Position numbers and translations under genes: made by a program. A stretch of DNA of 64,000 bases from Patescibacteria group bacterium. GTDB taxonomy: Bacteria; Patescibacteriota; Minisyncoccia; Phycocordibacterales; UBA918. The DNA lies in contig JBCCYW010000003.1 of assembly GCA_039188945.1 (NCBI GenBank), positions 8,573 through 72,572 of the forward strand, read 5' to 3'. The notes under the pieces are model-generated. The model saw only the letters and a list, made by a program, of their open reading frames with translations. It was not told where the DNA came from and searched no databases. Shown piece by piece: positions 30,860-45,821 of the stretch (position 1 is its first letter; each line of letters opens with the position of its first letter).

Positions 30860-32113
30860 TCATTTGGCCGCTACGGTAGCGATGTCACTCCACCTGGTTG
30901 TATAGGCAGGTGAGACTAATTCTTTCTTAGTTTGCCACTTACTGCGCAGCTTCCGATCACCCGCTCGCAAGGTCTCCCGACCAAGCTTCGCGTTAACTGC
31001 ATCAATCACCTCCATCAACCCCTGACGTTCCTCGAGTTCTTGGTCAACAAACAATGGTTGTTGAGTCCCAGCAGTAGCGACAATCCCACTTATTATTACA
31101 CCAGCTTTTTTATAAGGGACCTTAGGTTCATATAATTGTTTCGTGAGCTTTATTGCTTCTTTTATATAGAGAATAGTATCGTCTGATGGGACATCGAGAA
31201 TAGCTTCGGCTGAACCACCGCGCAACATATAGTCTCCGTGTCGGCTCGGTCTAATCATGACTCTTATATGAGTCGCTTTCGCCCCCATTTCGCGCAAGTC
31301 TTCTAGTGCGTGCCGCACATGATATGCCACCGCGTCTTCCAACACCAAAAGGTCGTCTGTACTGGAAGCAAATGAGCGAGTACTCATAATACTTTTCTGG
31401 AGATCAAGCCGATTCTTAAGGCGCTCAACTGACGCCCCCGAAAGTTCTTGTTGTAAGCGCTTTCCAGCTATACCAAACAACTTTTGTACTCGCTCAGTAT
31501 CAGCATTGATTAAATCTTTAATGGTTACTAGACCATGTCCTTTCATTTCTCTGGCTCGACCTCCCCCAATTCCCCACACTTCGCCAAGAGGAATATCGTT
31601 AATTTCACTCATATTGGTGGGATCAAGTAAGTAAATACCGTCCCCTTTCTTAGCTTTACTATTAGCTAATTTAGCTAGGGTTTTAGTACTCGCCAAACCG
31701 ATCGAAACCGGCATCCCTACCTTTGTCTGAATAGCGTTTCTGATGCGCACGACTTTCTCTTGTGCTTCTTCAATTGAAACAGCACTTAGGGTAAAAAACG
31801 CCTCATCCACCGAATACTGCTCTACCGTATCAATTTCTTGCCGCATCACCGCAAATACCCGCCGGGACACCTCTCGATAGTGCGGAAAATTGCTTGAAAA
31901 TACCGCTGTCCTTTTGTCTTTTATAATGTCCTTTATCTTAAAAAACGGGATTCCCATCGGGATTCCCATATCTTTTATCTCCTGACTACGAGCCACCACA
32001 CATCCGTCGTTACTCGAGAGCACCATGGTCGGCACATCTCTCAAATCAGGCCGAAACAACCGTTCACACGAGACAAAAAAATTATTGCAATCAAGGAGAC
32101 CAATAAATGTCAT
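30860..32113 (-). CDS. umuC: Y-family translesion DNA polymerase, UmuC-like (Pol V catalytic subunit/DinB family)
   Basis: ORF track 417 aa. N-terminus LDCNNFFVSCERLFRPDLRDVPTMVLSSNDGCVVARSQEIKDMGIPMG closely parallels E. coli UmuC DVNAFYASCETVFRPDLWGKPVVVLSNNDGCVIARNAEAKALGVKMG. Confidence 0.85.
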   Translation of the reverse strand: MTFIGLLDCNNFFVSCERLFRPDLRDVPTMVLSSNDGCVVARSQEIKDMGIPMGIPFFKIKDIIKDKRTAVFSSNFPHYREVSRRVFAVMRQEIDTVEQYSVDEAFFTLSAVSIEEAQEKVVRIRNAIQTKVGMPVSIGLASTKTLAKLANSKAKKGDGIYLLDPTNMSEINDIPLGEVWGIGGGRAREMKGHGLVTIKDLINADTERVQKLFGIAGKRLQQELSGASVERLKNRLDLQKSIMSTRSFASSTDDLLVLEDAVAYHVRHALEDLREMGAKATHIRVMIRPSRHGDYMLRGGSAEAILDVPSDDTILYIKEAIKLTKQLYEPKVPYKKAGVIISGIVATAGTQQPLFVDQELEERQGLMEVIDAVNAKLGRETLRAGDRKLRSKWQTKKELVSPAYTTRWSDIATVAAK

Positions 32114-32275
32114 CTCTCAAATAGTACCTTAGTTTTTAATGATTTCGACTAACCAACAGAGTATAAGGTAAGTCTCTAGACAAAAATCTAAATATTTACT
32201 AGTGAGTGGCGAGAAGGTGAGAAGTTTATAAATAAAATAATAGTGTTATGGTGAATCTTGCTAACGATTTAAATA

Positions 32276-32303
32276 TTGACACAATGTTATTTTATTTTAT
32301 ACT
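32276..32303 (+). promoter_or_regulatory. Near-consensus sigma70-type promoter TTGACA-N16-TATACT
   Basis: Seen directly: ttgaca at 32276-32281 and tatact at 32298-32303, in an AT-rich 200-bp intergenic region 17 bp upstream of the 32320 ORF. Confidence 0.5.
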
Positions 32304-32319
32304 CTAGACCAGTAGTGTA

Positions 32320-32862
32320 TTGAAAAATACCGAAAATCACACGAAGGAGACTGAAGTGTCTACTGAAAGTACGAAATCAGCTCCAGAATCTGTTGATCAA
32401 GTTGGATTAGCTCTCGTCGATGGTCAAGAGCGCTCTATCCAGCTTAGAGAGATGATGGTTAAGCTGGGGGTCACGTGGACCGTTAGGCTTCATCCGGATG
32501 ACTTTCTGCAAGCACAGCAGATTCTTGACTCTGAGAAAACATTCACTCACTTCAACTTAGGAAAAACGATCCATAAAGTTGGTGAAGAGTATGCTCTTGT
32601 TAAAATCGTAAAGTCAGGCGCAAGTGATAGACCTCCACTTATTGACTATACACAAGCAGTCTCTGTGAAGTGTTCAAGGGTTCTGGATGAAGTTAGCTAT
32701 TTGGACATCTCTAGTAGTGACTACCGATTTTCGTTACCCAATATTCAGAGTAGATCTGAATTGGAACGAGCAATGTGTAACAGATACTGCTCCGTTAGAA
32801 ACTTGACTGAGACTGCAGTGCTAAATATGACAGTCACCCTCACAGAGTTCAAACTTTCCTGA
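32320..32862 (+). CDS. Hypothetical protein (orphan plus-strand gene between umuC and the GH18-like gene). Alternative GTG start at 32357 with AAGGAGA RBS
   Basis: ORF track 180 aa. Strong upstream promoter. No recognisable motif. Confidence 0.45.
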   Translation: MKNTENHTKETEVSTESTKSAPESVDQVGLALVDGQERSIQLREMMVKLGVTWTVRLHPDDFLQAQQILDSEKTFTHFNLGKTIHKVGEEYALVKIVKSGASDRPPLIDYTQAVSVKCSRVLDEVSYLDISSSDYRFSLPNIQSRSELERAMCNRYCSVRNLTETAVLNMTVTLTEFKLS

Positions 32863-32961
32863 ATTAATCTAAAACGAAGGAGTATCAGAGCCGCCAATTA
32901 ACTTCGAGAGAAAGTTGGTTGGACGGCTTTTTCCTATATAAAACTTGAATCAATTTGTAGA

Positions 32962-34206
32962 CTAAAACAAATCCCAAATATCTTGATCCTCTTCTCCGTC
33001 GATCTTAAAGAGGGCTATGCCACGTAAATCGTAGTCATCAGCGAGATCGAGCTTGTCTTCTACCGCCTTAGCATCACTCCAGGTAATCATCCGAACGGGA
33101 ATCTCGATATCAGCATAGGTTGCTACTAGCAAGGCTTTGGCGGCCGCCTCATAGCCTTTTGGGGTGCCCGCTGGGATTGGTAGCGCGTTAAAAATCTTCC
33201 AAATTGAGTCTTCTGGAAAGTAGGTGATCACGGCTTCCCCGCCCTCAGTGCGACCAATTGGTGCATCATAAATTTCCGCCAGCTCTTCGATTCGTGGTGG
33301 ATTAAGGGTTGCCACGAGCTCATAGTCTTTATACCACTCAGACGCCACGGTAACGTCCCAGGCGCGACCGTAGGTTGGAATACCGAGTACCACCTTGTCT
33401 TCATCGAAATCCTCGAGCGCAAACTCCAGCACATGCTCCACCCAGTCAACATCAGCGACTGGGTTATACGGTACTCCACGACGCTCGTTGTTAAACACAA
33501 TATCAGCCCGCTGCTGATCGTACGCCATAATTTCAATCCAATCACAGTGGCGATTCATCGCTCGATAATCATTGGCGTACTGGATGGTTTCTGGCATTTG
33601 GTCGTCTCGCCAGCGGTGCTCTGGGCGCATCCGAGCCTCTACCGTACAAGAAAGGTCGCGTCGCCCAAGCTCATCTTCAAGTTCTTCCAGGAAATCTGAG
33701 AAGTAATCAATAGTTTTGGCTAGCTTTTGTTCGTAATCAATATTTACACCATCGAAGCGATACTGACGTACCATATCGACAATTTCCTCGATATGATCTG
33801 CTCGCTTGTCTTCATCACTTAAAACTTCATGAATCGCTGGACCATCAAACCAAGCAATCGTCGGAATCACCTCGACCCGCTCATCATCAGCCTCATCAAA
33901 CAAATCGTCCCAGTGATCATCGCGAAAATTTACTTTATTGACCAAGCGACCACGATCATCTACCTCGAACACAAATGGGTAAATTACATCGAGCTCGTCA
34001 AGATTATCTAAGGCCACCTCAGCGCCAGCTTCTTCCGTCCACCAAGGAATCCAACCAGACATATCATAAGAAGCTGCAAAAATATTGCGCGGAAAGAGGA
34101 TTGATAACAAAAACAGCACCAAAACCAGCCATAGCAAACCATCGCCAGCTCGACGCCCAAATTCTCGTTTATTCATACTGTTTATGACGCCTCTATTCAC
34201 CATTTC
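32962..34206 (-). CDS. Membrane-anchored glycoside hydrolase family 18-like protein (chitinase/peptidoglycan-hydrolase-like). Variant catalytic motif DGVNIDYE
   Basis: ORF track ORF 32962..34281. FDGVNIDYEQ resembles the GH18 DGxDxDWE motif; GIALFKIDGEED is GH18-like. Start trimmed to an internal Met because the annotated N-terminus overlaps the NUDIX gene. TM helix LLWLVLVLFLLSILF. Confidence 0.5.
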   Translation of the reverse strand, partial: EMVNRGVINSMNKREFGRRAGDGLLWLVLVLFLLSILFPRNIFAASYDMSGWIPWWTEEAGAEVALDNLDELDVIYPFVFEVDDRGRLVNKVNFRDDHWDDLFDEADDERVEVIPTIAWFDGPAIHEVLSDEDKRADHIEEIVDMVRQYRFDGVNIDYEQKLAKTIDYFSDFLEELEDELGRRDLSCTVEARMRPEHRWRDDQMPETIQYANDYRAMNRHCDWIEIMAYDQQRADIVFNNERRGVPYNPVADVDWVEHVLEFALEDFDEDKVVLGIPTYGRAWDVTVASEWYKDYELVATLNPPRIEELAEIYDAPIGRTEGGEAVITYFPEDSIWKIFNALPIPAGTPKGYEAAAKALLVATYADIEIPVRMITWSDAKAVEDKLDLADDYDLRGIALFKIDGEEDQDIWDLF

Positions 34207-34612
34207 TTTCTTTGAGACAGTCTGACAATCGATGCTTGAGGAAGGGAACAACATCATCACGAGACAAGACTTCTTCCACACTCATCCACTGCCATCGCTG
34301 GCCTTCGTCACCAAACACAATACTTTCTGCAAGTTCGGCAGGAATTTCTACCCCGCAAGCAAAAGCCTGGAGATTGTGATCATGCATTGCTGGATAAGCT
34401 TTCTGCCAAAAAACCATTTCGGGTGTAATACTAATACCAAACTCTTCCTGCGTTTCTCTCTGCAGTGTCTCAAATACCGTCTCTTCTCCTTCTCTTCCAC
34501 CACCAGGAAAATCCCACATATTTGCAAAACGGAGACCGGGTTTGTCATCTCTCAAATAGACCAAAAGCTGGTTATTGTGAAATACCGCTGCTTTTACTCC
34601 GTTGAAATCCAT
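34193..34612 (-). CDS. NUDIX hydrolase
   Basis: ORF track ORF 34193..34648. Nudix box GGGREGEETVFETLQRETQEEFGI (GX5EX7REUXEEXGU). Start moved to MDFNGVKAAVF, giving an ATGA-type overlap with umuD. Confidence 0.75.
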   Translation of the reverse strand: MDFNGVKAAVFHNNQLLVYLRDDKPGLRFANMWDFPGGGREGEETVFETLQRETQEEFGISITPEMVFWQKAYPAMHDHNLQAFACGVEIPAELAESIVFGDEGQRWQWMSVEEVLSRDDVVPFLKHRLSDCLKERNGE

Positions 34613-35046
34613 TAAAAAATTCTTACCGAACCAACGACAGTGCCCCATAGATATACATCTTCACTCTCATTTACCATGATCGGAGCATAGGCTTCGTTTT
34701 CCGAAACCAGAGCTGGATCGTTACCGACTTTGGTGTAGCGTTTGACCACTAATTCACCATACACCGCCGCTACCACGATCTTACCTTCTTTGGCATCAAT
34801 AGCGCGGTCAATCACCAACACATCGCCGTCAAAAATACCTGCCCCCTCCATCGAATCACCCGACACCCGAACAAAGAAAGTGGAAGCCGGGTTTTCAACT
34901 ACCAAATCATTAATATCAAGCGCTTTTTCTACCAAATCATCACCCGGAGCTGGAAAACCAGCTGCTGGTTGACTGGCGTATAGTGGTGCCTCAACGGGGT
35001 TGCCTGGCTGCATTTTGGCCACATCGACCGCTTTCGTTTCACTCAT
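34612..35046 (-). CDS. umuD: UmuD-like S24 peptidase (translesion polymerase accessory/self-cleaving subunit). Not a full LexA: no N-terminal HTH domain
   Basis: ORF track ORF 34612..35115. QPAAGFPAPGDDLVEKALDINDLVVENPASTFFVRVSGDSMEGAGIFDGDVLVIDRA...VKRY aligns with E. coli UmuD [57 protein letters not shown]...VKK (Ser-Lys dyad). Probable start MSETKAV. Confidence 0.72.
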   Translation of the reverse strand: MSETKAVDVAKMQPGNPVEAPLYASQPAAGFPAPGDDLVEKALDINDLVVENPASTFFVRVSGDSMEGAGIFDGDVLVIDRAIDAKEGKIVVAAVYGELVVKRYTKVGNDPALVSENEAYAPIMVNESEDVYLWGTVVGSVRIF

Positions 35047-35114
35047 AGAGGCTAGTATAGCGGCAAACGAAACAGCCGGCCAGCACGTAGTGCTGGCCGG
35101 CTGTTTCTTCAGCA

Positions 35115-36233
35115 TTAGACTATCAGCGCCCCACTCGTGACAAAACTATGTAGATAGAAGAGTCCACTCATGAGGACCAATAGTCCAAAGCCATAGGCAA
35201 TCTGCACTGGCCGTTGGTGCTGCGCCTCAATCACAATAGACAACGCTAAAGCTAGTGCCACAAACAAGCCAATCAGAACGTACAGAGTTTGCAATACGAC
35301 ATTAGGTCGAGTGGCAACTGAACCAATAAATGTCCCGATATCTTCTGCAGCAATTTCGCTCACCGTCTCGGCTGGTGGCGCTGGCGCTAAGCCAGAGCTC
35401 GTTGCTACCGTTTCGGTAAACACCGAAACCGATTCATCCTCAATCTCAACTTCGGCAATAACCGGTTCTTCTGATTCAGCAACTTGAATTGGTTCTGATT
35501 CCACTTCAGTTGCCACTTCTTCTAGCACAACTGGTTCAGATTCTGGTTCCGGAAGCTCAATAATATCGATTGTTTCGGCCAACACTGCGCTTGGTTCAGG
35601 TGATTCGGTCGCTTGAGCCACCACCAGTTCACTGACTGGCTCTGGTCGAGCAATAGCTGGTGTTCCAAATAATTGAACAACGTAGACAGTATCAAAACCT
35701 TGGTAGCGTCCACGAGCGGTACCAACGCCTATTTCGGTAAATTTTTGATCAACAATATTGGCGCGGTGTGATGGAGAATCCATCCAGGCATCCACCACTT
35801 CATCTGAATCGCTAAAATGGATGGCGAGGTTTTCTCCAGCGTGCGCAAAATCATACGACACCTCACCAAACCAATGCCATGGCGATACACCATCTGGGCT
35901 GTAGTGTGAGAAATATTGACCTTCCGCCATGTGTTGTGCTTTAAGCTCAGCCGCCTCATCGAGTGTTAGACTCCGCTGCAGAGCACTCGCACCATTGTCA
36001 GCCCGCTCGTCGTTTGTTAATTCAACCACCACACTAGGCAAAATAGTCGAGACCAGCCAGTCTGAAGTCATCCAAAACTGCGAGTGGAGGTTAGCGGCGG
36101 TAAAGGTAAGCAATACCAAACCGAGCATCGCCAACATAGCGGCCCGTTGCAAAATATGCGGTGTATAATCATTCCCTTCGTGTGGAATAAAGTAATTATG
36201 GACGTGTTTTTTCACTTTTATATTATAACACAA
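35115..36233 (-). CDS. CAP/SCP (YkwD-like) domain extracellular protein with acidic linker and C-terminal TM anchor
   Basis: ORF track 372 aa. HYSPDG...NLAIHFSDSDEVVDAWMDSPSHRANIVDQKFTEIGVG is the CAP/SCP_bacterial signature. The start may be the internal Met before the first TM (MLAMLGLVLL). Confidence 0.65.
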   Translation of the reverse strand: MCYNIKVKKHVHNYFIPHEGNDYTPHILQRAAMLAMLGLVLLTFTAANLHSQFWMTSDWLVSTILPSVVVELTNDERADNGASALQRSLTLDEAAELKAQHMAEGQYFSHYSPDGVSPWHWFGEVSYDFAHAGENLAIHFSDSDEVVDAWMDSPSHRANIVDQKFTEIGVGTARGRYQGFDTVYVVQLFGTPAIARPEPVSELVVAQATESPEPSAVLAETIDIIELPEPESEPVVLEEVATEVESEPIQVAESEEPVIAEVEIEDESVSVFTETVATSSGLAPAPPAETVSEIAAEDIGTFIGSVATRPNVVLQTLYVLIGLFVALALALSIVIEAQHQRPVQIAYGFGLLVLMSGLFYLHSFVTSGALIV

Positions 36234-36360
36234 ATTGTACTAAAGATCAATTATATCCAGGTCCAGTAAGTCCAGGCTCAAGTCAGCGAACGTCCGCGAG
36301 GGTTACGTGCCTATCTCTTTCGTCAAGCATCCAAGCGTGTGAGCTGATTTGAGCTTGGAC

Positions 36361-37005
36361 TTATGTTTCTGTAATAAGCCTACCGTATACCACTAAATTA
36401 TGGCTATACCGCTGCTCCCCTTTGTCAAAGGTACCTGAGCAGGTAATTAATCGTAGCCCAGCGTGATCAATGTCTCCGTACACGAGCTGCGTTGGGAAAC
36501 CAGCCTGTTCATAACGGGCTAGCTCAGTAATTTCAAAAGTGGCCACACTCCCATCTTCTCGCTCAATATCTACCGTATCCCCTGGCTCAAGCTCTCCTAG
36601 CGACCAAAATATAGCTGGTCCATCCACTGAATCAACATGACCAAGAATGATCGAGGGACCAAGTTCACCGGGCGTAGGGCTATACTGATACCAACCAACT
36701 TCTTCATAACCGTCTGGAACTTCCACTTCCCCGTTGGTTTCAAGCCCAAGCGGAGCAGTGAACGGTGCTTCGAGGTTTAACTTCGGGATCGAGAGAATAA
36801 CTGGTGCTGACTCTGGAAGCAATTCGCCTTGTATAACCAGTGGCTTTGTTTCTTCGATACCATTTTCAAGGACTTTTTTCTCATACTGATGTAGGAAGTC
36901 ACCAATAAACAGTGCTCCCAGCAATCCACCCAGCACAAAAGCCACTACAAGTGTGTAGCGGCTTTTGTAGTTTAGGATAAATGCTTTCAGCTTACTCAGT
37001 CGCAT
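36361..37005 (-). CDS. Sortase (class E/F-like transpeptidase)
   Basis: ORF track ORF 36361..37053. Catalytic His in PSIILGHVD and Cys in LRLITCSG (TLXTC motif). N-terminal TM anchor. Start trimmed to MRLSKLK to limit overlap with the upstream giant gene. Confidence 0.8.
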   Translation of the reverse strand: MRLSKLKAFILNYKSRYTLVVAFVLGGLLGALFIGDFLHQYEKKVLENGIEETKPLVIQGELLPESAPVILSIPKLNLEAPFTAPLGLETNGEVEVPDGYEEVGWYQYSPTPGELGPSIILGHVDSVDGPAIFWSLGELEPGDTVDIEREDGSVATFEITELARYEQAGFPTQLVYGDIDHAGLRLITCSGTFDKGEQRYSHNLVVYGRLITET

Positions 37006-40000
37006 TACGACGAGTATAGAGAAGGAATCCGAAGAATACAACCAGGATTGCAAGATTGACTACTGAACCAGCGGCCTGAGCGCCACCAGCACCCGCATTT
37101 GGTGCCCCGAGTGGAACTATACTCACCTGCTCACCAGCTACAATTCCTTCAGGTGTAACCAGATCACCTCCCTGACCATCACCAGTTGGACTCACTTCGA
37201 CTTCACAGGTTCGAGTTCGACTACCTCGACTCACTTCCATCAAGAAGGTAGTGTCTTCGGTGATAGTAGTTTCAAATGAACCATCATCAACATCAGTCGG
37301 ATCGTCTGAGCTAAAGATCTCGGTTCCATTTGCAAACAACACAATATCAGTCGTTCGTCGTGTCTCCCAGGTAAGGGTTACTTCCCCATTATCCTCATCT
37401 GCTTCAAAGAGTGTACAACGTGGTGCGCTTGATCCACCAGAACCGCCGCCGCCACTTGGTGTGTCAGCTACTTCGATCAGACCAAAGTTGAATGGACCGA
37501 AGCTTGGCACCTGAGCGTGGGCCGTCGGAATAATGAATTCACGTACCGATTGCAAGAACGTAGTAGCCACAACTTCTGGTACGGTTACCACATGCTCACC
37601 GCTATCAGGGAAAACATTTTGCCAACCACCTTGCGTTACCTGAGTGATAGTCCAGGTTCCCGCTGGTACATTCAATTTGTAGTAGCCAGTTGAGTCTGTA
37701 GTAGTTGAGAAGGTTTGCTCGCCATCGGTTGCTTTGACGGTCCACCCACTCAAACGTGACTCCTCCTCATCAATTACATCATCTTCATCCTCATCATTCC
37801 ACACGAAGCCATCGAGCATGTAGAGTTGTTGCTGATTATCTTGGAATTGATTTCCGAAGTCACAGCGGTATTCACCTCCATTAGCGTACTCAAACACACA
37901 TACTCCCGGATCTTCTGGAGCGGTCTGCGTCCAGCCGATTTGGTTAGCTTCTGAGATAGTCCATTCGCCTTCTGGCAACCAGAAATAGTAGTACCCTTCG
38001 GTATCAGTCGTGGTTGATACTTCAGTTTCTCCATTAGATGCGAAGATAGTCCAGTTTGGCAGATACTGTTCTTGATCATCTTTCTCACCATTTCCATTCT
38101 CATCACTCCACTTGTAGCCATCGACATAGAATTCTTTCGGTTCTTCAGGATCAGGCATAGTAGTGACTGCACATTGAGCCAAACCATCGACAGTCAACTT
38201 GTAGAGCAGGCCAGCTGGATTCTGACGATTGTTGGCGTTCTGATTTCCAACATTAGTAACCTCGATTACCAATTCATTATTTCCTTCAACTAAGGCACTC
38301 GTCACGTCTTTTGAGGTCTGCGTGTGTGACTGGAAATTATTGTTTTGACCAGACCGGTCGATCACTAATTCACCATTAAGGTATGCTTTGTAACGATTAT
38401 CTGCGGCCACTTCAAGCAAGCCCGTGTGTGGACCAGATACCGTAAAGGTTTCCTTGAAGGTATAGGTCTCGTCTTGATCAGGGTTCTCAACAAACTCACT
38501 GTTCCAAATCCACGTTGCATCATCAATGTCTGCTGTCCAATTTGGGTGTACGTAGGTAGAAGTTGCGTAGGTATTACCCTCAACAACAACTGTCCCACTA
38601 TCACTCACCATTTCAATTGAACACTTCGGCGCTTCTTCACACACCAACGACACGTTGTCGAGGAACGTACCTGATGAATTTGGTACCCCAGCGTCTTGGA
38701 AAGAAATGTCTGTCACATAATTCTCAGCTGTGAAGCTATATGAATCACTCGCCCAAGCAACATCGCTTCCTCCAGCCATACCGTTAGTAACTTCTACATC
38801 ACCATCAACCAATACTTCGAGCTGATTCTGCGCCGCATTGGTGTCTGGTCGTGGTGAGAAGTCCCAACTCAGTACGTAATTCTCTCCCGGAATGGTTGGA
38901 ATTCCTTGCGTAATCTTCACGGAAGCTTCTTCGCTACCTCCACCACTCGGGCCTTCCCAGTCACCATCAAGCTCTGCGTACTGATCACCATCTGACGCTG
39001 CCCAACCCTGAACATCTCGTTGTAATTCAAGCGATGCCTCATCTGGTGCGCCGGCAAAATCGTCAACAAACTCAACTGTCCACGCGAGCGCAGGATAGGT
39101 AGTGAGATCAAAGATATCCCACGCACCATCGACTTCAGGTGCCTCGAATGACGGATTTGTGATGAGATTAACACCAGGCTCACAGGTCAGCTTTGGCTTT
39201 TCGACATTCCAAGCCACACAGTAGTATGTTTCACCATTCTTAAGATCATCAATTCGATCGTAGTTGTCGTAGTTCTTTACATCGATGTGACAGTACATTT
39301 CTGCGGTAACATCATCAGTATTCCTCTTACCTTCTGCTTCATGTGTAAATGGAATATATCCCTCCTGGAGTACCTCACGGAACCAGAGATGTTTTCCTTC
39401 CCGATAGTCATCAGCAGAAAGCGTGATTGAAGCCTTGCCGTCTTGATCAGTTGGACCGAAGGTGTTCCAAGGATCACCAGCTTCACCCATAAATTCATCT
39501 CCAGGATCAAAGGCGTTTTTAGGACCCCACTGGAATTCCCAATCTGGTTCAAGACGACAGCTGTCGTTATTAGCTACCCAATCAGCGGCAGTACTTTCGT
39601 CCATGTCTGGACCTCCCTTACCATAATTCGGCAACTGGGACTCATCCGTACATACGATCTTGTGTGCCACGATAGTAATTTGATCTTCCGGCACAGGACA
39701 AAATGATCCATCTCCCCAAGCAAATGGTCCGGTCTGCAAGAGTGGTGTATCAGCGACAAATGGACTGAGTGTGAATGGGTAGAAACCATCTTCACGTGTA
39801 TACGCATAGTACGTACCATCTTTACCAGCCGCACTGGTAATTCGTTGATTTCCAACCGCTAGAGTGCCGAGCAGTGTCTCAGCGTAGCTCATGCTGTCGA
39901 TGCTATACACTTGCCCTTTATTTCGTACATAGACAATCACATCATCTTCGTACACGACATCACCACCCGCTACATCTAGATCAAGATCATGAAGCTTCGT

Positions 40001-42421
40001 CGCAGCGCCAGAAACTGGATTGATTTTGTAGAGAGCATCGTTATTTTCTGTAAGAGCATACAGAGTCCCATCAGGAGCAAACTCCATAGCAACGGGCTTT
40101 TTGCTCTTTATACCGGTATTGCCAATCGTAGTAATAGCTCCCAGGTCGTTATCAAGTGTCACCAGCTCTCCAGTAGCTCTATTAATCGAATAGACTTGCT
40201 CATCTGACGACACAGCAAGCACTGGAAAGAGGTCAATGTCGTACGTGCCAAATAGTGTGGCCGCTCCAGTCATTTCATTAACGGTATGTAAGCTGCTTTG
40301 CGCTGGCGCATCAGTTTCAGTATCGAGATACAAAAGCCCGGCCTCACACTGATAGACCTCTGGTTCAGGCTCTTTCACGAAACACACCGCGGTGTTATCA
40401 ATCAATGACCCGAGACCATTAGCATCTCCCATGTCGGCGAACGAAATGTCAGTCTCTTCGCCAGTAGCTACAAATGTAGTGGTGTGAGTATCCCAAGACT
40501 TTTCACTAAGTCCATTACCCGAACCAGTAGCGCTAAGAACCTCAATATCATCTACAAGAGCTTGTACCTTGTTATCATTTTCACCAGTACGTGGACGCGG
40601 TGAAAAATCAAAACGAAGTTCATAGGTTGCTCCCGGAATAGTCTCAATAGTCTGTGTGATTTTACTTGGTGCGGTGGTATCAAGCTCAAGATTTTGCTCA
40701 CCATCTGAAGCGGGACCAAATAGTCCGCGCCAGATCTCACCAGTAATGCTACTGTCGTCAGACACCTTGGTTACTACCCAATCGGTGATCGAGCTGAGCG
40801 TCCAGCTCTGGCTGATTGCAGGATCTTCAAACGAAGGGTTTTCGAGAAGATTCTCACCAATCTGACACACCGGCGGAATGATAATCTCAGTCGGTTCAAA
40901 ATCGTAAGTTGTCTTATGAATGACATTATCAGCCAGTACGCCAATAACAAGTTCATCGACATGACTTTCAAGTCCAGCATTTGATGAACCACCCTTGAGG
41001 AAGAATTGTCCTAGTTCACCAACCTGAATACCCGCATGAGGCGCAATCGTGAGCACTTCAGCAGCGGTACAAGGACTACCTTGTGTACACGCACCACCAA
41101 GTGCGCTACCGCTAGATGCCCACCACTTGCCAGCCAGCGCATCCCAGGTTTTCCATTCATTCAATGCTTCGGTGTCACTACTTGGATTTGAGTGATAAGG
41201 CTCAAAAATGAGTCGGCCCTGCCAAGTCTCAACATCATCATCAAGGTTCTCATCGAAGTTAAACGCTAGCGCAATGTTTGTAACATTATCTTCTGCAATC
41301 TTGTACGTGCTGTACATAAGCATGGTGAGCGCGTCGAGTCGTGTGCCAGCGAAGTTATTGGTGGCGATACCATACTGGTCGCCAGCTTCTGGGAGTGTCA
41401 GCAGTACATTACCTTCACCAATTTTTTGGGTGTCAGGATCAAATGAGAATTCGTAACGACCAGCTTTGCTGGTAGTGGTTGGTACATTTGTGTCACCACT
41501 CTCAGCGTCACTGTCTACCCAAAAGTACCAGTCAGATGGCACTGACAGTGCAAGCTCATCTTCTTTAACGACAACCGTTTTTTCGCGAACTTCTGGTTCC
41601 GGTATAGGGCATTTGGTTCCAGCTAGTCCAGCCGTGTCAGTGCTGCCAAGTAAGTTCCAGACAATGTTTGAACCGTCCCAATTATCAATCTTAATGGGAG
41701 CACCTTGATTAAATGGAGTACGTCCTGGCCGTCCTGCAACCGTATCTGGTAGTCCAAACTCTTCAATGAATTTACTCTCGAATGAACTAGGAGTGACGTT
41801 ATTGTTCTCTCCGAATGGGATTGTTGTAGTTACACCAGTTTTGTTTTCGTAACCAAAGTACGCAATGTATTTACCATCATTATTGGGATCATCTTCCCAA
41901 CACTCAAAAATACCGTTGAGTTCCTTGGCGGTTGGCAGTGGATCAGATTGTTGGACAGCTGCTTCGCCAGAGTATGTCTGATCTAAATTCGCATTAGTGA
42001 AACTAACGTTAAGCACCTCGTTACCCTCATTATCTTCGAGAATAAACGATTCACTGCCGGAGTTATTCCATACATTTGAAGTACCCCAGATTGCATCGCA
42101 CGTACTGGTTGGAGCTACGTCCTGACAGACTTTATAGCTTTCTCCAGTCGCAAGTGTCACCGCCCCGAATGTATACGAGAAGCTTGCAGCGTCTTTGACC
42201 TCCCAATTAAATAGATCGAGAGCACCGGTGCCTGAATACGAAATAGTAAACGACTCAGGTCCTGATGACGGATTTGCTAATACGGCCCCCGTTACCAATC
42301 CATCTGCCGCTGCATGCGCGACAAAAAAAGACGCTGGAAAAGCGCTCAACATCATCGATACAGCAGTAACGACCGCAAGGAAGCGTGCTGTGGCACGGTT
42401 GGTTGATGTAAAAATATTCAT
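36992..42421 (-). CDS. 1,800-aa secreted multidomain surface protein: signal peptide, two CBM4/9-like modules (NLLENPSFEDP, NLITNPSFEAP), beta-propeller-like region, two CnaB/SdrD-B-like repeats, and a C-terminal Gly/Ala-rich segment followed by a hydrophobic anchor and basic tail (sortase-substrate-like)
   Basis: ORF track 1820-aa ORF 36992..42454. Probable start MNIFTSTNRATARFLAVVTAVSMMLSAFPASFFVAHAAA. C-terminus ...IVPLGAPNAGAGGAQAAGSVVNLAILVVFFGFLLYTRRNATE. Immediately followed by the sortase gene. Confidence 0.8.
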   Translation of the reverse strand: MNIFTSTNRATARFLAVVTAVSMMLSAFPASFFVAHAAADGLVTGAVLANPSSGPESFTISYSGTGALDLFNWEVKDAASFSYTFGAVTLATGESYKVCQDVAPTSTCDAIWGTSNVWNNSGSESFILEDNEGNEVLNVSFTNANLDQTYSGEAAVQQSDPLPTAKELNGIFECWEDDPNNDGKYIAYFGYENKTGVTTTIPFGENNNVTPSSFESKFIEEFGLPDTVAGRPGRTPFNQGAPIKIDNWDGSNIVWNLLGSTDTAGLAGTKCPIPEPEVREKTVVVKEDELALSVPSDWYFWVDSDAESGDTNVPTTTSKAGRYEFSFDPDTQKIGEGNVLLTLPEAGDQYGIATNNFAGTRLDALTMLMYSTYKIAEDNVTNIALAFNFDENLDDDVETWQGRLIFEPYHSNPSSDTEALNEWKTWDALAGKWWASSGSALGGACTQGSPCTAAEVLTIAPHAGIQVGELGQFFLKGGSSNAGLESHVDELVIGVLADNVIHKTTYDFEPTEIIIPPVCQIGENLLENPSFEDPAISQSWTLSSITDWVVTKVSDDSSITGEIWRGLFGPASDGEQNLELDTTAPSKITQTIETIPGATYELRFDFSPRPRTGENDNKVQALVDDIEVLSATGSGNGLSEKSWDTHTTTFVATGEETDISFADMGDANGLGSLIDNTAVCFVKEPEPEVYQCEAGLLYLDTETDAPAQSSLHTVNEMTGAATLFGTYDIDLFPVLAVSSDEQVYSINRATGELVTLDNDLGAITTIGNTGIKSKKPVAMEFAPDGTLYALTENNDALYKINPVSGAATKLHDLDLDVAGGDVVYEDDVIVYVRNKGQVYSIDSMSYAETLLGTLAVGNQRITSAAGKDGTYYAYTREDGFYPFTLSPFVADTPLLQTGPFAWGDGSFCPVPEDQITIVAHKIVCTDESQLPNYGKGGPDMDESTAADWVANNDSCRLEPDWEFQWGPKNAFDPGDEFMGEAGDPWNTFGPTDQDGKASITLSADDYREGKHLWFREVLQEGYIPFTHEAEGKRNTDDVTAEMYCHIDVKNYDNYDRIDDLKNGETYYCVAWNVEKPKLTCEPGVNLITNPSFEAPEVDGAWDIFDLTTYPALAWTVEFVDDFAGAPDEASLELQRDVQGWAASDGDQYAELDGDWEGPSGGGSEEASVKITQGIPTIPGENYVLSWDFSPRPDTNAAQNQLEVLVDGDVEVTNGMAGGSDVAWASDSYSFTAENYVTDISFQDAGVPNSSGTFLDNVSLVCEEAPKCSIEMVSDSGTVVVEGNTYATSTYVHPNWTADIDDATWIWNSEFVENPDQDETYTFKETFTVSGPHTGLLEVAADNRYKAYLNGELVIDRSGQNNNFQSHTQTSKDVTSALVEGNNELVIEVTNVGNQNANNRQNPAGLLYKLTVDGLAQCAVTTMPDPEEPKEFYVDGYKWSDENGNGEKDDQEQYLPNWTIFASNGETEVSTTTDTEGYYYFWLPEGEWTISEANQIGWTQTAPEDPGVCVFEYANGGEYRCDFGNQFQDNQQQLYMLDGFVWNDEDEDDVIDEEESRLSGWTVKATDGEQTFSTTTDSTGYYKLNVPAGTWTITQVTQGGWQNVFPDSGEHVVTVPEVVATTFLQSVREFIIPTAHAQVPSFGPFNFGLIEVADTPSGGGGSGGSSAPRCTLFEADEDNGEVTLTWETRRTTDIVLFANGTEIFSSDDPTDVDDGSFETTITEDTTFLMEVSRGSRTRTCEVEVSPTGDGQGGDLVTPEGIVAGEQVSIVPLGAPNAGAGGAQAAGSVVNLAILVVFFGFLLYTRRNATE

Positions 42422-42535
42422 AAAAATAGCCTCTAAACTACTAATCCCACACACAGAGAAAATGCGTGTACGCCCATCCTACACCTTTATTTCATTCCTG
42501 CAAAGTTTATGAAATGGGATTAGCTTTTAGTCAAG

Positions 42536-43438
42536 CTATTGCATTGACTCACCGATCCTGCGGACCGTATCCATGCCAGCACAAGCACCCATCATATTAG
42601 TGTCGATTACTTCAGCTTCGAGCTCTTGAGCTCGCAACTCAGCATCATCTTTATGAGCATACATACGCTCCACGAAGGCTCGTCGCTCTCCGGCCATCTC
42701 TTGCAAACTCACCGCGTTATCAAACATCCACGGGAAAACGCCACAAGCATGAAACGTTCGCTCCTCCTCACCCAATAAGCCGAGTACTCGCACCTGGTTA
42801 CCTGTCTTTAACGTAAAGATGTCTTGATCATACAGGTCAGCGATCTGCAGCTTCCATTCACTACCAGTGATATCGATAAAGCGGATAATGTTATCACCCT
42901 GCAAACCATGGACCTGACCAACCAAACGACCTTCCTCAGGCTGTTGCCAGAGCGCCAACTCACGATTTTCTTGCGAAGAATAATAAGGCATCATGTCGCC
43001 AATTTTGTTATCAATCAAGCCCCCAAGACCAGCCGCCTGAAGCCCTAAGCCCCCAAAGACACTGAGTGCGAGACTGCTTACTACAATTGTCGACAATGAG
43101 TAACGATAGCCCCGACCTGAGTTCTTAAAGTTGTAGTACGCAGCCACCACCATCAAAAACAACACCACCACCCACAGATACGGTAGTGCGCTGACAATAA
43201 AGGTAAATGAATTCTCATGAGTGGCTTCATAAAACGCGTAGCGTGTATGGAGAATAGAGAATACCGAGATTGCAACCGCTAAGGCCCCCACCACAATGGA
43301 GACAGCCCACAGCATGCGCATCAGGCACTGAGCACAGAAAAATACCACCCATGGAGTTGGTTTGATTTGCTCTTCGTTTATCTTATCCATCACGCTATTG
43401 GTGAGAGCTGATTCTGTTTTATGATTATCCATACTCAT
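42536..43438 (-). CDS. Multi-pass membrane protein, putative anti-sigma factor partnered with the upstream ECF sigma gene
   Basis: ORF track 300 aa. 3-nt gap after the sigma gene. Several TM helices. No recognisable catalytic motif. Role inferred from position only. Confidence 0.35.
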   Translation of the reverse strand: MSMDNHKTESALTNSVMDKINEEQIKPTPWVVFFCAQCLMRMLWAVSIVVGALAVAISVFSILHTRYAFYEATHENSFTFIVSALPYLWVVVLFLMVVAAYYNFKNSGRGYRYSLSTIVVSSLALSVFGGLGLQAAGLGGLIDNKIGDMMPYYSSQENRELALWQQPEEGRLVGQVHGLQGDNIIRFIDITGSEWKLQIADLYDQDIFTLKTGNQVRVLGLLGEEERTFHACGVFPWMFDNAVSLQEMAGERRAFVERMYAHKDDAELRAQELEAEVIDTNMMGACAGMDTVRRIGESMQ

Positions 43439-43440
43439 AC

Positions 43441-44028
43441 TTAAATACGCACTGATTCTATATTTATTTTGTCTCGCAACTGCTTCTTTCCGCGATGAAT
43501 CAAGGTACCCACCGAACCAACTGGGATCTTCAAAATGTCTGAAATTTCCTCATATTCTTTATGTTCAAAAAAGCGAAGAATGAGTACTTGTTTATATTTC
43601 TCGTCAACCAACATTAACGCTGACTCCAGCTCAACGGCATTGATTGCTTTATCAAACTGCACTTCAGATGAATCATTTTCGCTGGCGATAATACCTAAGA
43701 TCTCATCGCTATCACCAACCAAGTGACCCTCTGGGCGCACATTTCGCTTACGATACCAACTAATCGCTTCGTTATGAGCAATCCGGTAAATCCAAGATGA
43801 AAACGAGAGATCAGGGTTGAAGGCGTTCAGGTTTCGATAGACCTTAATAAAAATCTCTTGTAAGACATCTTGACGATCTTCAACCGTGCGGACCCCAAGA
43901 CGAGTCACGTATCGTCCTAATTTATCTTCGTATCGCTCAACAATATGCCCAAAAAAGGCATTTTCATTCAGGGCGAGACGAACAATTTCTTCGTCTGACA
44001 TAATTTCTTTTTCGTCCAGAAGACTCAT
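43441..44028 (-). CDS. ECF-type RNA polymerase sigma-70 family factor
   Basis: ORF track ORF 43441..44049. Region 2: DRQDVLQEIFIKVYRNLNAFNPDLSFSSWIYRIAHNEAISWYRKR. Region 4 HTH: EISDILKIPVGSVGTLIHRGKKQLR. Start probably MSLLDEKEIMSDEEI. Confidence 0.8.
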   Translation of the reverse strand: MSLLDEKEIMSDEEIVRLALNENAFFGHIVERYEDKLGRYVTRLGVRTVEDRQDVLQEIFIKVYRNLNAFNPDLSFSSWIYRIAHNEAISWYRKRNVRPEGHLVGDSDEILGIIASENDSSEVQFDKAINAVELESALMLVDEKYKQVLILRFFEHKEYEEISDILKIPVGSVGTLIHRGKKQLRDKINIESVRI

Positions 44029-44087
44029 ACGTACTACGGCAGCCACCATAATTTATTGCAGCGGTCCAAATGTAGTAGAATACTCGC

Positions 44088-44609
44088 ATGAAATTAGGAA
44101 AAATAAAACTCACACTCATGGTGCTTAGTGCTCTATTTGTGCTTCCCCAAGCAAGCCAAGCATACTTCACCACTGACCAATCAGCTTTTCTGATTAGTGA
44201 TAACGCTGCTCTACTAACCATTTCGTATAGTTTCGGTTTCTCTAGCCGAGAAGCACTTCTACCTATTGCTGCAGTACGTGGTGAAACTGAAAGTCAGGCT
44301 GTACTGGGTTATGAGTTGTTGGAAGATAGCCGAGCCAGTACCAGCGTTGGGACAGCCGCTGGAATCATTGTCAGCGACGCCGAAGTTCGTAACGGTCAGT
44401 ACTATATTCCAGCCGGACAGACCGCTGACTTTACGTTGGTAGTTGTCCTTACCACCGAACCAACTGACCCAGAGATTGACTACGCTCTCCAGGTTAGCCA
44501 CCTACCCTTTACTATGATCACAGCCGATGGCACGGTACTAGAAAATGGTCTGACTGACAGCGAGCTCTCCTACTACATCTCACCTGAAGTAGACCTCAAC
44601 GAAGAGTAA
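44088..44609 (+). CDS. Secreted hypothetical protein (signal peptide), divergent from the sigma gene
   Basis: ORF track 173 aa. Signal peptide MKLGKIKLTLMVLSALFVLPQASQA. Confidence 0.5.
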   Translation: MKLGKIKLTLMVLSALFVLPQASQAYFTTDQSAFLISDNAALLTISYSFGFSSREALLPIAAVRGETESQAVLGYELLEDSRASTSVGTAAGIIVSDAEVRNGQYYIPAGQTADFTLVVVLTTEPTDPEIDYALQVSHLPFTMITADGTVLENGLTDSELSYYISPEVDLNEE

Positions 44610-44613
44610 ATAT

Positions 44614-45330
44614 ATGTCTGACGAACCAGTCCGACTCAACAAATACCTCGCCCATGAAGGCATCGCTTCTCGACGAGAGGCTGATGCGCTGATTGCAGCC
44701 GGAAAAGTTTTCGTCAATGGCGAGAAGGCTGAACTTGGCACTAAAGTGACGAGTGCTGATGAGGTCACTCTCACCGGAACACAAAAAACAAAAAAGTACC
44801 TAGCCTACTACAAAGGTCGCGGTGTTATTACGCATTCACCAGGTGAAAACGAGACCGACATCATGGAAAAGCTGGCGGCTGATTATGGTATTACCGATGT
44901 TAATCCGATTGGTCGTTTAGACAAAGATTCTGAAGGCTTGATCCTTCTCTCCACTGACGGCCGTATCACTGGACCACTCTTAGATCCTGAAGCTAATCAC
45001 GAGAAAGAATATGATGTCACCGTTGATAAGCCAATCAACCAATGGTTTTTACGCCATATGGCTGAAGGTGTTGATATTGAAGGCTATCAAACCAAGCCTA
45101 CCGCCATTACCGCCAACGAGAAGAATAGGAAGCGGTTCAGACTCATTCTAACTGAAGGTAAGAAGCACCAAATTCGGCGGATGTGTGCCGCTCTTGGCTA
45201 CCAAGTGCAGGATCTCAAACGAGTTCGTATTGTGAATATTGAATTAGGTGACCTAAAACCAAATCAATTTCGAAACATCAAAGGTGGTGAGCTTGCAAAA
45301 CTACTGCATTCTCTTGCTATAAAAAAGTAG
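44614..45330 (+). CDS. rRNA pseudouridine synthase, RsuA/RluB family (S4 domain plus catalytic Asp motif)
   Basis: ORF track 238 aa. S4 domain RLNKYLAHEGIASRREADALIAAGKVFVNG. Catalytic GRLDKDSEGLILLSTDG. Confidence 0.85.
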   Translation: MSDEPVRLNKYLAHEGIASRREADALIAAGKVFVNGEKAELGTKVTSADEVTLTGTQKTKKYLAYYKGRGVITHSPGENETDIMEKLAADYGITDVNPIGRLDKDSEGLILLSTDGRITGPLLDPEANHEKEYDVTVDKPINQWFLRHMAEGVDIEGYQTKPTAITANEKNRKRFRLILTEGKKHQIRRMCAALGYQVQDLKRVRIVNIELGDLKPNQFRNIKGGELAKLLHSLAIKK

Positions 45331-45341
45331 ACGCCGCAATG

Positions 45342-45821
45342 TTAGCGACGCCATACTAGCGAGATGAGCAAGAAAAGACCAGCTGTAAGTGCGGCAGCAA
45401 GGCTACCAAGAGCTATTGCTAACTGACAGAGTGCCAAAATAGCCGGATACCCAAGCAAAGCAAAGATCAGCAGATCATGCGGCCACGAATCACCACCAAA
45501 TATAAACTTTAAGCAAACGAGCGTACACACCATGGGCAACAGTACGTGAGGTCTTAGATCGACCTCTTCCACTATTCCATGTTGAGCAGTATCAAATAGG
45601 CGTCTTCCTTCTTTGGCTGAGGAAATGATCGTCAGCACCAACAAGCAATGCAGCAAGTACCAATCGTAGAGTGTTGTGAGCACGATCTCGATTGGTCCAT
45701 TTTCTGTATTTTCGTGGTTAGCCACCATAACGAGCGCTAGGCTAAATACAGTGGCGATGAGTGTGACAAGAAATGGCAGCGGCAAATTCAGCAACCATCT
45801 TGCCAATTGCCGTACCATCAT
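45342..45821 (-). CDS. Hypothetical integral membrane protein
   Basis: ORF track 159 aa, 4-5 predicted TM helices. Confidence 0.4.
   Translation of the reverse strand: MMVRQLARWLLNLPLPFLVTLIATVFSLALVMVANHENTENGPIEIVLTTLYDWYLLHCLLVLTIISSAKEGRRLFDTAQHGIVEEVDLRPHVLLPMVCTLVCLKFIFGGDSWPHDLLIFALLGYPAILALCQLAIALGSLAAALTAGLFLLISLVWRR

Follow-up and report, generated by a model that had tools for sequence, protein, structure and literature searches.

The locus described here raises the question of how a very large secreted protein without a canonical LPXTG motif could be displayed at the surface of a Patescibacteria (candidate phyla radiation, CPR) cell, and whether an extracytoplasmic function (ECF) sigma factor encoded beside it controls that display. 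The DNA analysed was a 64-kb stretch of a Patescibacteria genome (the window; all coordinates are window positions). Four genes lie on its minus strand in the order of transcription: an ECF-type sigma factor gene (43441..44028); a gene for a 300-aa membrane protein with three transmembrane (TM) segments, referred to below as TM300 and a putative cognate anti-sigma factor or sensor (42536..43438); a gene for a large secreted multidomain surface protein of 1,809 aa, an adhesin candidate and predicted sortase substrate (36992..42421); and a class F sortase gene (36361..37005; 214 aa). All four had been described in the original prediction, and a check of the open reading frames (ORFs) found each of them. 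The NCBI counterparts come from a metagenome-assembled genome, on one 89.5-kb contig, with 99% identity for the sortase and exact matches for TM300, the large protein and the sigma factor. The reading of the locus that we think rather likely to be right is that of a surface-display module, in which a substrate-sortase pair uses a non-LPXTG sorting signal under the probable control of the sigma factor and TM300.

The C-terminus of the large protein reads ..VAGEQVSIVPLGAPNAGAGGAQAAG-SVVNLAILVVFFGFLLY-TRRNATE, so that PLGAPNAGAGG is followed by a hydrophobic stretch and a basic tail in the tripartite arrangement of sorting signals. In the signal (36995..37153, minus strand), 17 hydrophobic residues separate a conserved block (VAGEQVSIVPLGAPNAGAGG) from the tail TRRNATE, and the core motif, VPLGAPNAGAGG, is encoded at 37082-37117 on the minus strand. 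LPxTG, LAxTG, NPxTG and LPxTA were searched for across the whole protein and none was found, and the tail was not matched by the LPXTG anchor model TIGR01167; a tripartite C-terminus lacking canonical LPXTG, as first described, was thereby confirmed.

The C-termini of other predicted substrates were compared in 80 loci obtained from a genome scan with the sortase alignment, mostly from Patescibacteria with a few from actinomycetes; individual loci are cited by L-numbers. The tails number 71 in all (70 without that of the window), and 66 unique tails were used for the consensus. The gene just upstream of the sortase carries the signal in 59 of the 80 loci by a strict pattern, and in about 65 when the tails are judged by eye. 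Alignment of the 66 unique tails gave the consensus P-x-G-x-V-L-G-E-Q-V-S-x-V-P-x-G-A-P-N-T-G-A-G-G-(T/A)-(S/A)-P, followed by roughly 20-45 further residues that include a hydrophobic stretch and basic residues. VPLGAPNAG, proposed earlier as the candidate motif, lies inside this strongly conserved signal. The Pro at position -2 is kept in 64 of the 66 tails and the three Gly residues of the motif are invariant; the P1 residue is Thr in 48 tails, Ala in 17 and Ser in one. The window motif (..IVPLGAPNAGAGG..) is of the Ala type, with its P1 Ala at residue 1777, inside ..EQVSIVPLGAPNAGAGGAQ... Thr and Ala alternate at P1 among closely related sortases (GAADTG in L003 and GAADAG in L014, at 74% sortase identity), so both are probably accepted by the enzyme.

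The proteins that carry the signal are otherwise diverse and range from 167 to 1,820 aa, usually with one substrate gene per locus. The signal is tightly coupled to the sortase gene: in 51 of the 59 loci the sortase ORF either overlaps the substrate stop codon or begins no more than 30 nt away. When the 70 tails from the other loci were made into a profile and the six frames of the window were searched with it, the large protein was the sole match (E = 9.4e-15), and neither a second sortase, nor a second sigma factor, nor another signal-bearing protein was found in the window. A Pfam scan of the related tails returned no matches, and the last 140 aa of the adhesin brought up nothing in a word-indexed homology search.

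Two side observations concern the tails. In L039, L040, L047, L056 and L057 the hydrophobic segment is about 10 residues long (e.g. SLPTLVAILS), unusually short for membrane retention. A contig labelled Candidatus Woesearchaeota archaeon (L008, PWWA01000121.1) encodes the same class F sortase, at 58% identity, together with a substrate that bears the signal, and is probably a mis-binned Patescibacteria contig.

The tails were also compared with the curated model NF058571 of NCBIfam (GVDTG-CTERM, or 'GVDTG sorting domain'), which matched 47 of the 71 at E ≤ 10. Its cut-off of 29 bits was passed by a single tail, that of the actinomycete locus L077 (MPVGGMQTGAGG.., 47.1 bits), which has a class F sortase adjacent to it; when 13 tails were scanned singly, those from Patescibacteria scored 14-28 bits, below the cut-off. 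The window tail shares with the family the tripartite architecture at the extreme C-terminus, and is linked to it by homology through the profile of related tails. The two signals share a P-x-G-(G/A)-(V/P)-(D/N)-(T/A)-G-x-G-G core, in which G-V-D-T-G aligns with A-P-N-(T/A)-G, and in both cases the next gene downstream encodes a class F sortase (actinomycete examples L076, L077 and L080); unlike GVDTG-CTERM, the Patescibacteria tails have GAPN(T/A)G and an additional conserved VLGEQVS block. Since the GVDTG model matches the tails weakly and is satisfied only by an actinomycete sequence, the Patescibacteria signal is best described as a divergent, sub-threshold branch of a curated and apparently unpublished kind of sorting signal; no publication on a GVDTG-type signal was found in the literature searched. 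The motif as such is not new to curated databases, NF058571 covering its sister branch.

Another explanation of the conserved C-terminal element is that it is a plain membrane anchor following a conserved linker, or the target of some other enzyme, the sortase serving other proteins. Several points lean that way and count against a sorting signal: LPXTG is absent, no curated sorting-signal model recognises the window tail (with NF058571 it gave no match at E ≤ 10), many of the related tails have short and weakly hydrophobic segments, and, unusually for a sortase signal, about 20 residues N-terminal of the motif are conserved as well. Against this explanation stand the coupling to a class F sortase gene in Patescibacteria and actinomycetes alike, the tripartite layout with an x-P-x-(T/A)-G core that resembles LPXTG, the relationship of the tails to the curated GVDTG sorting domain, and the restriction of a sortase-type signal to this one protein of the window. 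We regard it as very improbable, and the C-terminal element is treated below as a sorting signal.

The class of the sortase was assigned by hidden Markov model. The class F model NCBIfam NF033748 scored 174.2 bits (cut-off 166), and the runner-up classes (E, GN and D) scored about 20 bits or less, so that class F alone exceeded its cut-off. The predicted catalytic residues are His123 (LGHVDS), Cys189 (ITCSG) and Arg199 (QRYSHN); all 26 homologues compared have the His and Cys, and at least 90% have the Arg. A hydrophobic segment, VVAFVLGGLLGALFIGDFL, lies near the N-terminus, as expected of a membrane anchor. No close structural template was found for the enzyme, the nearest solved structure being 4D70 (E = 0.007). 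Its start was placed at ATG 37005 (MRLSKLKAFILNYKSRYTLVVAF..), which is favoured by the N-termini of 25 homologues and gives an overlap of 14 nt with the end of the large gene, in agreement with the overlap first reported. Two other starts were rejected on the same N-termini: TTG 37053, which opens the longest ORF (36361-37053) and would give a 62-nt overlap, and the GTG 36945 of the NCBI annotation, which would leave a 46-nt gap after the large gene.

The one-to-one pairing of sortase and substrate, together with stalk domains of the SdrD_B or CnaB-like type that are typical of Gram-positive pilins and adhesins, could also fit a polymerase like the class C pilus sortases, which would polymerise the large protein into fibres. 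The class C model was not among the sortase-class matches, and loci usually have a single substrate gene whose product varies greatly in size and domain content; of the explanations considered here this one seems to us the most remote. The core of the module would rather be a two-gene operon in which a translationally coupled, membrane-anchored class F sortase acts on the large secreted protein. By analogy with LPXT/G, the sortase would cut after the Thr/Ala position of P-x-G-A-P-N-(T/A)-G-x-G-G, a signal followed by the hydrophobic segment and the basic tail (here ..GAPNA/GAGG), and would then join the cleaved protein covalently to the cell wall.

The large protein carries lectin-like DUF642 domains, PA14-like and propeller-like regions and an SdrD_B stalk. 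Its longest ORF spans 36992-42454 (1,820 aa), and translation probably starts at ATG 42421 (MNIFTSTNRATARFLAVV...), as in the NCBI entry MEM9336485.1, with GAGG 8-9 nt 5' of it. A signal peptide is followed by a lamin-tail-like domain (41999..42286; PF00932, 32.8 bits, just under the cut-off of 34.3), a first DUF642/choice-of-anchor C domain that opens with NLLENPSFEDP (40385..40849; PF04862, 45.5 bits, cut-off 27), a beta-propeller-like repeat region of the DUF4394/DUF6923 type (39887..40207; PF14339, 33.5 bits, cut-off 29.6), a second DUF642 domain that opens with NLITNPSFEAP (38648..39073; PF04862, 28.6 bits, cut-off 27), a sub-threshold PA14-like region, two SdrD_B stalk domains of CnaB-like fold (37595..38107; PF17210, 57.5 bits in two stretches, cut-off 29.7), and about 90 aa without a domain call before the C-terminal signal, all on the minus strand. 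On the choice-of-anchor C model TIGR04362 the first DUF642 domain scored 104.9 bits, under the cut-off of 120, which places it outside that NCBIfam subfamily.

The two domains that open with the NPSFE motifs had been called CBM4/9-like and the stalk repeats CnaB-like. DUF642 and CBM4/9, like SdrD_B and CnaB, are approximately equivalent in fold, and at that level both descriptions hold, as does the count of two CnaB-like copies; the family labels were replaced. The CBM4/9 label was rejected, its sole match being PF22637 (CBM_4_9_1; E = 0.021, 15.5 bits, cut-off 27), and Cna_B itself was not among the matches to the stalk. Two other loci (L013, 13787-17741, plus strand; L073, 10708-15399, plus strand) encode large proteins that share the signal peptide of the window adhesin (..ARxxAVxxxxSxxLSAFPASFF) and have no sortase signal, ending instead in ..TKWKINDIVCPG..; in L013 this gene follows a sigma factor/TM300 pair and a TGAAA..CGTA motif.

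The sigma factor has Sigma70_r2 (residues 36-103) and r4_2 (residues 140-191) as its only Pfam domains, numbered on the 202-aa ORF, and scored 104.2 bits on the ECF model TIGR02937 (cut-off 42.9). Its longest ORF extends to 44049; the NCBI start, ATG 44028, gives a protein of 195 aa (MEM9336487.1), and ATG 44001 is an alternative, homologues beginning to align at about residue 17. The closest solved relative is SigW of Bacillus subtilis (5WUQ, E = 1e-22). Identity as a SigW equivalog was considered and rejected, the scores on NF007223 and TIGR02948 being 111.3 bits (cut-off 209) and 105.1 bits (cut-off 243.1). The TM300 gene directly follows the sigma gene, as had been noted; the intervening gap had been given as 3 nt and is 2 nt, or 8 nt if the second ATG of TM300 is used.

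Homologues of both proteins occur in 17 of the 80 loci and are always adjacent, at spacings of -20 to +13 nt. When three divergent TM300 relatives (30-38% identity) were included, a member of the TM300 family directly followed an ECF sigma gene in all 22 of the places examined, that of the window among them. The downstream genes differ around these divergent relatives: a lipoprotein and a MacA/MacB-like ATP-binding cassette (ABC) exporter follow the pair in L081 (2747-7311, plus strand), VKOR and a DUF8173 protein follow it in L082 (8981-9990, plus strand), and a substrate and sortase follow it in L084. Sigma factor and TM300 always occur together while the genes after them differ; their pairing is therefore obligatory, as would be expected if TM300 were the cognate anti-sigma factor.

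In the AlphaFold2 model of TM300 (mean pLDDT 82), an N-terminal helix (residues 11-23) bears the conserved pattern LKxxVLxRIxxExxxPRSR; the other elements are three TM helices, an OB-fold of five strands (residues 171-236) and a long helix, and two cysteines, Cys232 and Cys286, are conserved. Positive charges precede TM1 and lie between TM2 and TM3, so the N-terminus is predicted to face the cytoplasm and the OB-fold the cell exterior. For a protein encoded directly downstream of and coupled to an ECF sigma factor, a cytoplasmic N-terminus that leads into TM helices is the arrangement of anti-sigma factors, and adjacency and topology together suggest that TM300 acts as one. It would hold the sigma factor through the short cytoplasmic N-terminal helix and sense a signal outside the cell through the OB-fold domain with its two conserved cysteines. 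Envelope stress, the trigger assumed in the original prediction, would be a guess from the family name.

The relatives of TM300 are all annotated as hypothetical, and a profile retrieved 2,538 cluster representatives among 1.84 billion proteins. Searches of TM300 against Pfam and NCBIfam gave no match, and the divergent relatives gave sub-threshold Pfam noise only. A profile search of the PDB found nothing below E = 0.39, and Foldseek against the PDB returned generic OB-folds only (E > 6e-3). Speaking against anti-sigma activity, TM300 had no likeness in sequence or fold to known anti-sigma domains (for example zinc-binding class I/zf-HC2, RskA and RsbN), and no HxxxCxxC motif was found in its alignment. 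Our tentative extension of the preferred reading is that TM300 is the founding member of a new anti-sigma class, with a short N-terminal binding helix, three TM helices and a disulfide-bonded OB-fold sensor on the outer side of the membrane. In Patescibacteria that depend on a host, it would free a SigW-like sigma factor in response to an external cue, for instance when the cell touches the wall of its host, switching on a lectin-rich adhesin and a dedicated class F sortase that reads a signal some 20 residues long, in which cleavage follows Thr or Ala.

The gene order sigma factor, membrane protein, signal-bearing protein and sortase, first noted in the window, recurs in L001, L012, L018, L019, L021, L029, L030, L036, L055, L056 and L084. 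For a count, a locus was eligible if its substrate gene was complete and 1.8 kb or more of sequence was available upstream; 10 of the 46 that qualified have the order, to which L084 is added. No terminator was predicted between the sigma factor/TM300 pair and the large gene, nor after the sortase. The locus had been read as one self-contained unit. It is a recurring module, and the adhesin gene has a promoter of its own and about two thirds of the related sortase loci lack the pair, so the part of the claim that implied a single obligatory transcript did not stand.

The promoter block before the adhesin gene (42465..42503, minus strand) has two overlapping readings. As an ECF-type promoter it consists of TGAAAT (42494-42489), 16 nt and CGTA (42472-42469), the kind of target motif for which the original prediction had proposed a search upstream of 42454; as a sigma-70-type promoter it consists of TTGCAG (42503-42498), 16 nt and TAGGAT (42481-42476). 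The block, TTGCAnnnnTGAAAnAnAGGAGTACnATTnnCGTAnCACG, is conserved in the window and in L009, L012, L013, L018, L029, L030 and L055. A perfect TGAAA-N17/18-CGTA precedes the substrate gene in 4 of the 10 loci in which the sigma pair is adjacent (0.02 expected from shuffled sequences) and in one of 40 others, L009, where the pair lies 0.9 kb upstream; the ECF-type motif is thus confined to loci that carry the pair.

A similar motif stands 5' of the sigma gene itself (44035..44060, minus strand), where TGCAAT-N16-CGTA, with the CGTA 6 nt before ATG 44028, is a candidate autoregulatory promoter. In the 17 loci with a sigma gene the motif was perfect in 3 (0.03 expected) and matched at 8 or more of 9 positions in 7 (0.72 expected), the expectations again coming from shuffles. 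Its offset is the same for the window, L001, L021 and L056, and in the window, L001 and L056 the CGTA lies 6-7 nt before the ATG, which suggests that the sigma mRNA is leaderless and autoregulated. Both distant loci have comparable elements beside their sigma pairs, TGAAG-N17-CGTA in L081, where it follows a terminator-like hairpin and precedes the lipoprotein/exporter operon, and TGAAAT-N16-CGTT in L082.

These motifs have to be weighed against a second account of the locus, which is synteny without regulation: the adhesin-sortase operon would be constitutive, transcribed from the sigma-70-type promoter only, and sigma factor and TM300 would be an independent envelope regulator carried by one Paceibacteria lineage. 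The TGAAA..CGTA block would then reflect conservation of a spacer or leader, or the binding site of another factor; a purely sigma-70 promoter plus another conserved site is a serious rival to the dual reading of the block. Several observations tell against sigma control. TM300 is directly upstream of the substrate gene in only 10 of the 46 eligible loci, and the pair lies within 10 kb in 15 of them; most sortase loci, as said, do without it. The sigma-70-type signal TTGCAn-16/17-TAnnAT precedes the substrate gene with and without the pair (without it in L016, L026 and L038), and in L001 and L084, which have the pair, it is the only clear signal. The pair also stands before unrelated genes, the MacB-like exporter of L081 and VKOR of L082. 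The surrounding gene order (rluB, the gene for a 173-aa protein, ..., a CAP-domain protein gene and a LexA-like protein gene) is itself conserved, and the adjacency of the pair may in part be inherited synteny.

On the other side, the TGAAA and AGGAG positions of the spacer and the CGTA are kept across loci at 55-65% sortase identity, none of which a sigma-70 promoter needs; the motif is present only alongside the sigma pair; and it agrees with the motif of the sigma gene and with the SigW consensus, SigW promoters being TGAAAC/CGTA (PMC5758882). We consider synteny without regulation possible, and doubt it. A purely ECF promoter was dropped as a description of the block, in which sigma-70-type signals overlap and recur in loci without the sigma factor. 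The block is probably a dual promoter, a basal sigma-70 promoter overlaid by an ECF promoter in part of the lineage, and control of the adhesin-sortase operon by the sigma factor is probable on this comparison of promoters. Freed sigma factor would raise expression of its own gene and of the adhesin-sortase operon through the TGAAA-N16/17-CGTA promoters, on top of the basal sigma-70-type promoter.

The leader of the substrate gene (42425-42468, minus strand) contains a possible CACG...CGTG hairpin, seen also in L012, L013, L016, L018, L029, L030 and L055 and hence in sigma-bearing and sigma-less loci. A conserved leader hairpin was rejected: RNAalifold gave no consensus pairs on a MAFFT alignment, and the fold of the window sequence was weak (z = -1.7). 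An Rfam scan of 35000-45500 found nothing credible. Elements resembling a -10 box stand 6 nt before three start codons, TAGAAT-N6-ATG for the 173-aa protein (44081-44090, plus strand), TATAAT-N6-GTG for the CAP-domain gene (36215-36250, minus strand) and CGTA-N6-ATG for the sigma factor (44028-44038, minus strand), which suggests that leaderless mRNAs are frequent in this genome.

The wider gene order around the module (window 30860-36233, minus strand, and 44614-45330, plus strand; also L013, L019, L051 and L073) is kept across many Paceibacteria-type loci: pseudouridine synthase, 173-aa protein, [sigma, TM300], substrate, sortase, CAP/YkwD-domain membrane protein, LexA/UmuD-like, chitinase-like and Y-family polymerase-like proteins, the last three names being assigned from inspection of the sequences alone. 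About 40 of the 80 loci have the CAP-domain gene after the sortase; in the window this gene has its own TTGATC-17-TATAAT promoter. The 173-aa secreted protein (44088-44609, plus strand), which has no Pfam match, is encoded divergently from the sigma gene; at least 10 sigma-bearing loci have a homologue in the equivalent position, and homologues lie upstream of the substrate gene in sigma-less loci such as L016, L026, L038 and L059, and the protein may be part of the module.

Farther to the left, an open frame of more than 7,048 codons (2-21148, minus strand) runs past the window end. Its product has an N-terminal hydrophobic segment, three DUF2341 domains and pentaxin/LamG-like and Ig-like domains, and its C-terminus lies beyond the window. 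Of two secreted proteins encoded beside it (21159-22739 and 23266-25245, both minus strand), one has a cohesin (31 bits) and the other a C-terminal dockerin (29 bits); a cohesin-dockerin surface assembly may therefore be encoded in this CPR genome.

The module is a variant of known biology, combining sortase sorting with control by an ECF sigma factor and an anti-sigma factor. The class F sortase of P. acnes (Cutibacterium) is presented, in the passages of PMC8225981 and PMC13251363 that cite Di Girolamo et al. (2019), as a housekeeping enzyme acting on LPXTG. The window enzyme resembles it in class, in the His-Cys-Arg triad and in the N-terminal membrane anchor, and differs in its paired substrate, which lacks LPXTG, and in being encoded as half of a dedicated, closely coupled gene pair. 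In Streptomyces, the ECF sigma factor BldN and the adjacent, sequence-unique membrane anti-sigma factor RsbN control the chaplins (PMC6101532), surface proteins that include substrates of a class E sortase, with LAXTG (PMC8225981). An ECF sigma factor with an adjacent membrane partner and sortase-anchored surface proteins are common to both systems, the roles in the window being predicted. The BldN system uses a class E sortase and its targets are dispersed, away from the sigma gene; TM300 has no similarity to RsbN and possesses three TM helices and an outside OB-fold.

SigW and RsiW of B. subtilis offer the nearest solved sigma factor, a near-identical promoter motif (TGAAAC-N16-CGTA in SigW) and autoregulation, which the window shares by motif. 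Unlike that pair, the window sigma factor scores below the SigW equivalog cut-off (111 against 209 bits), TM300 lacks a zinc-binding anti-sigma domain (HxxxCxxC is absent) and any Pfam match, and the putative target is an adhesin-sortase operon, whereas SigW governs detoxification genes.

Reviews and a 2026 study describe the physiological roles of class F sortases as unknown, the LPXTG-specific enzyme of P. acnes being the exception, and a quadruple class F deletion gave no phenotype in Actinoplanes (PMC13251363). Sortases are encoded in over half of CPR genomes (PMC6744442); in the literature searched, CPR papers note only that sortases are common, and no described CPR sorting signal was found. 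What the locus offers for the class F sortases of Patescibacteria is a defined recognition sequence that can be tested, together with a pairing of one enzyme with one substrate, and it ties the Patescibacteria signal to the GVDTG signal of actinomycetes. Should the motif work in vitro, it could widen the set of sortase tags for protein engineering. If TM300 does found a new class of anti-sigma factors acting on this module, class F sortases would gain a defined class of substrates. The data also point to a large, uncharacterised family of sigma-coupled membrane proteins, which may control adhesin display in bacteria that mostly live attached to a host.

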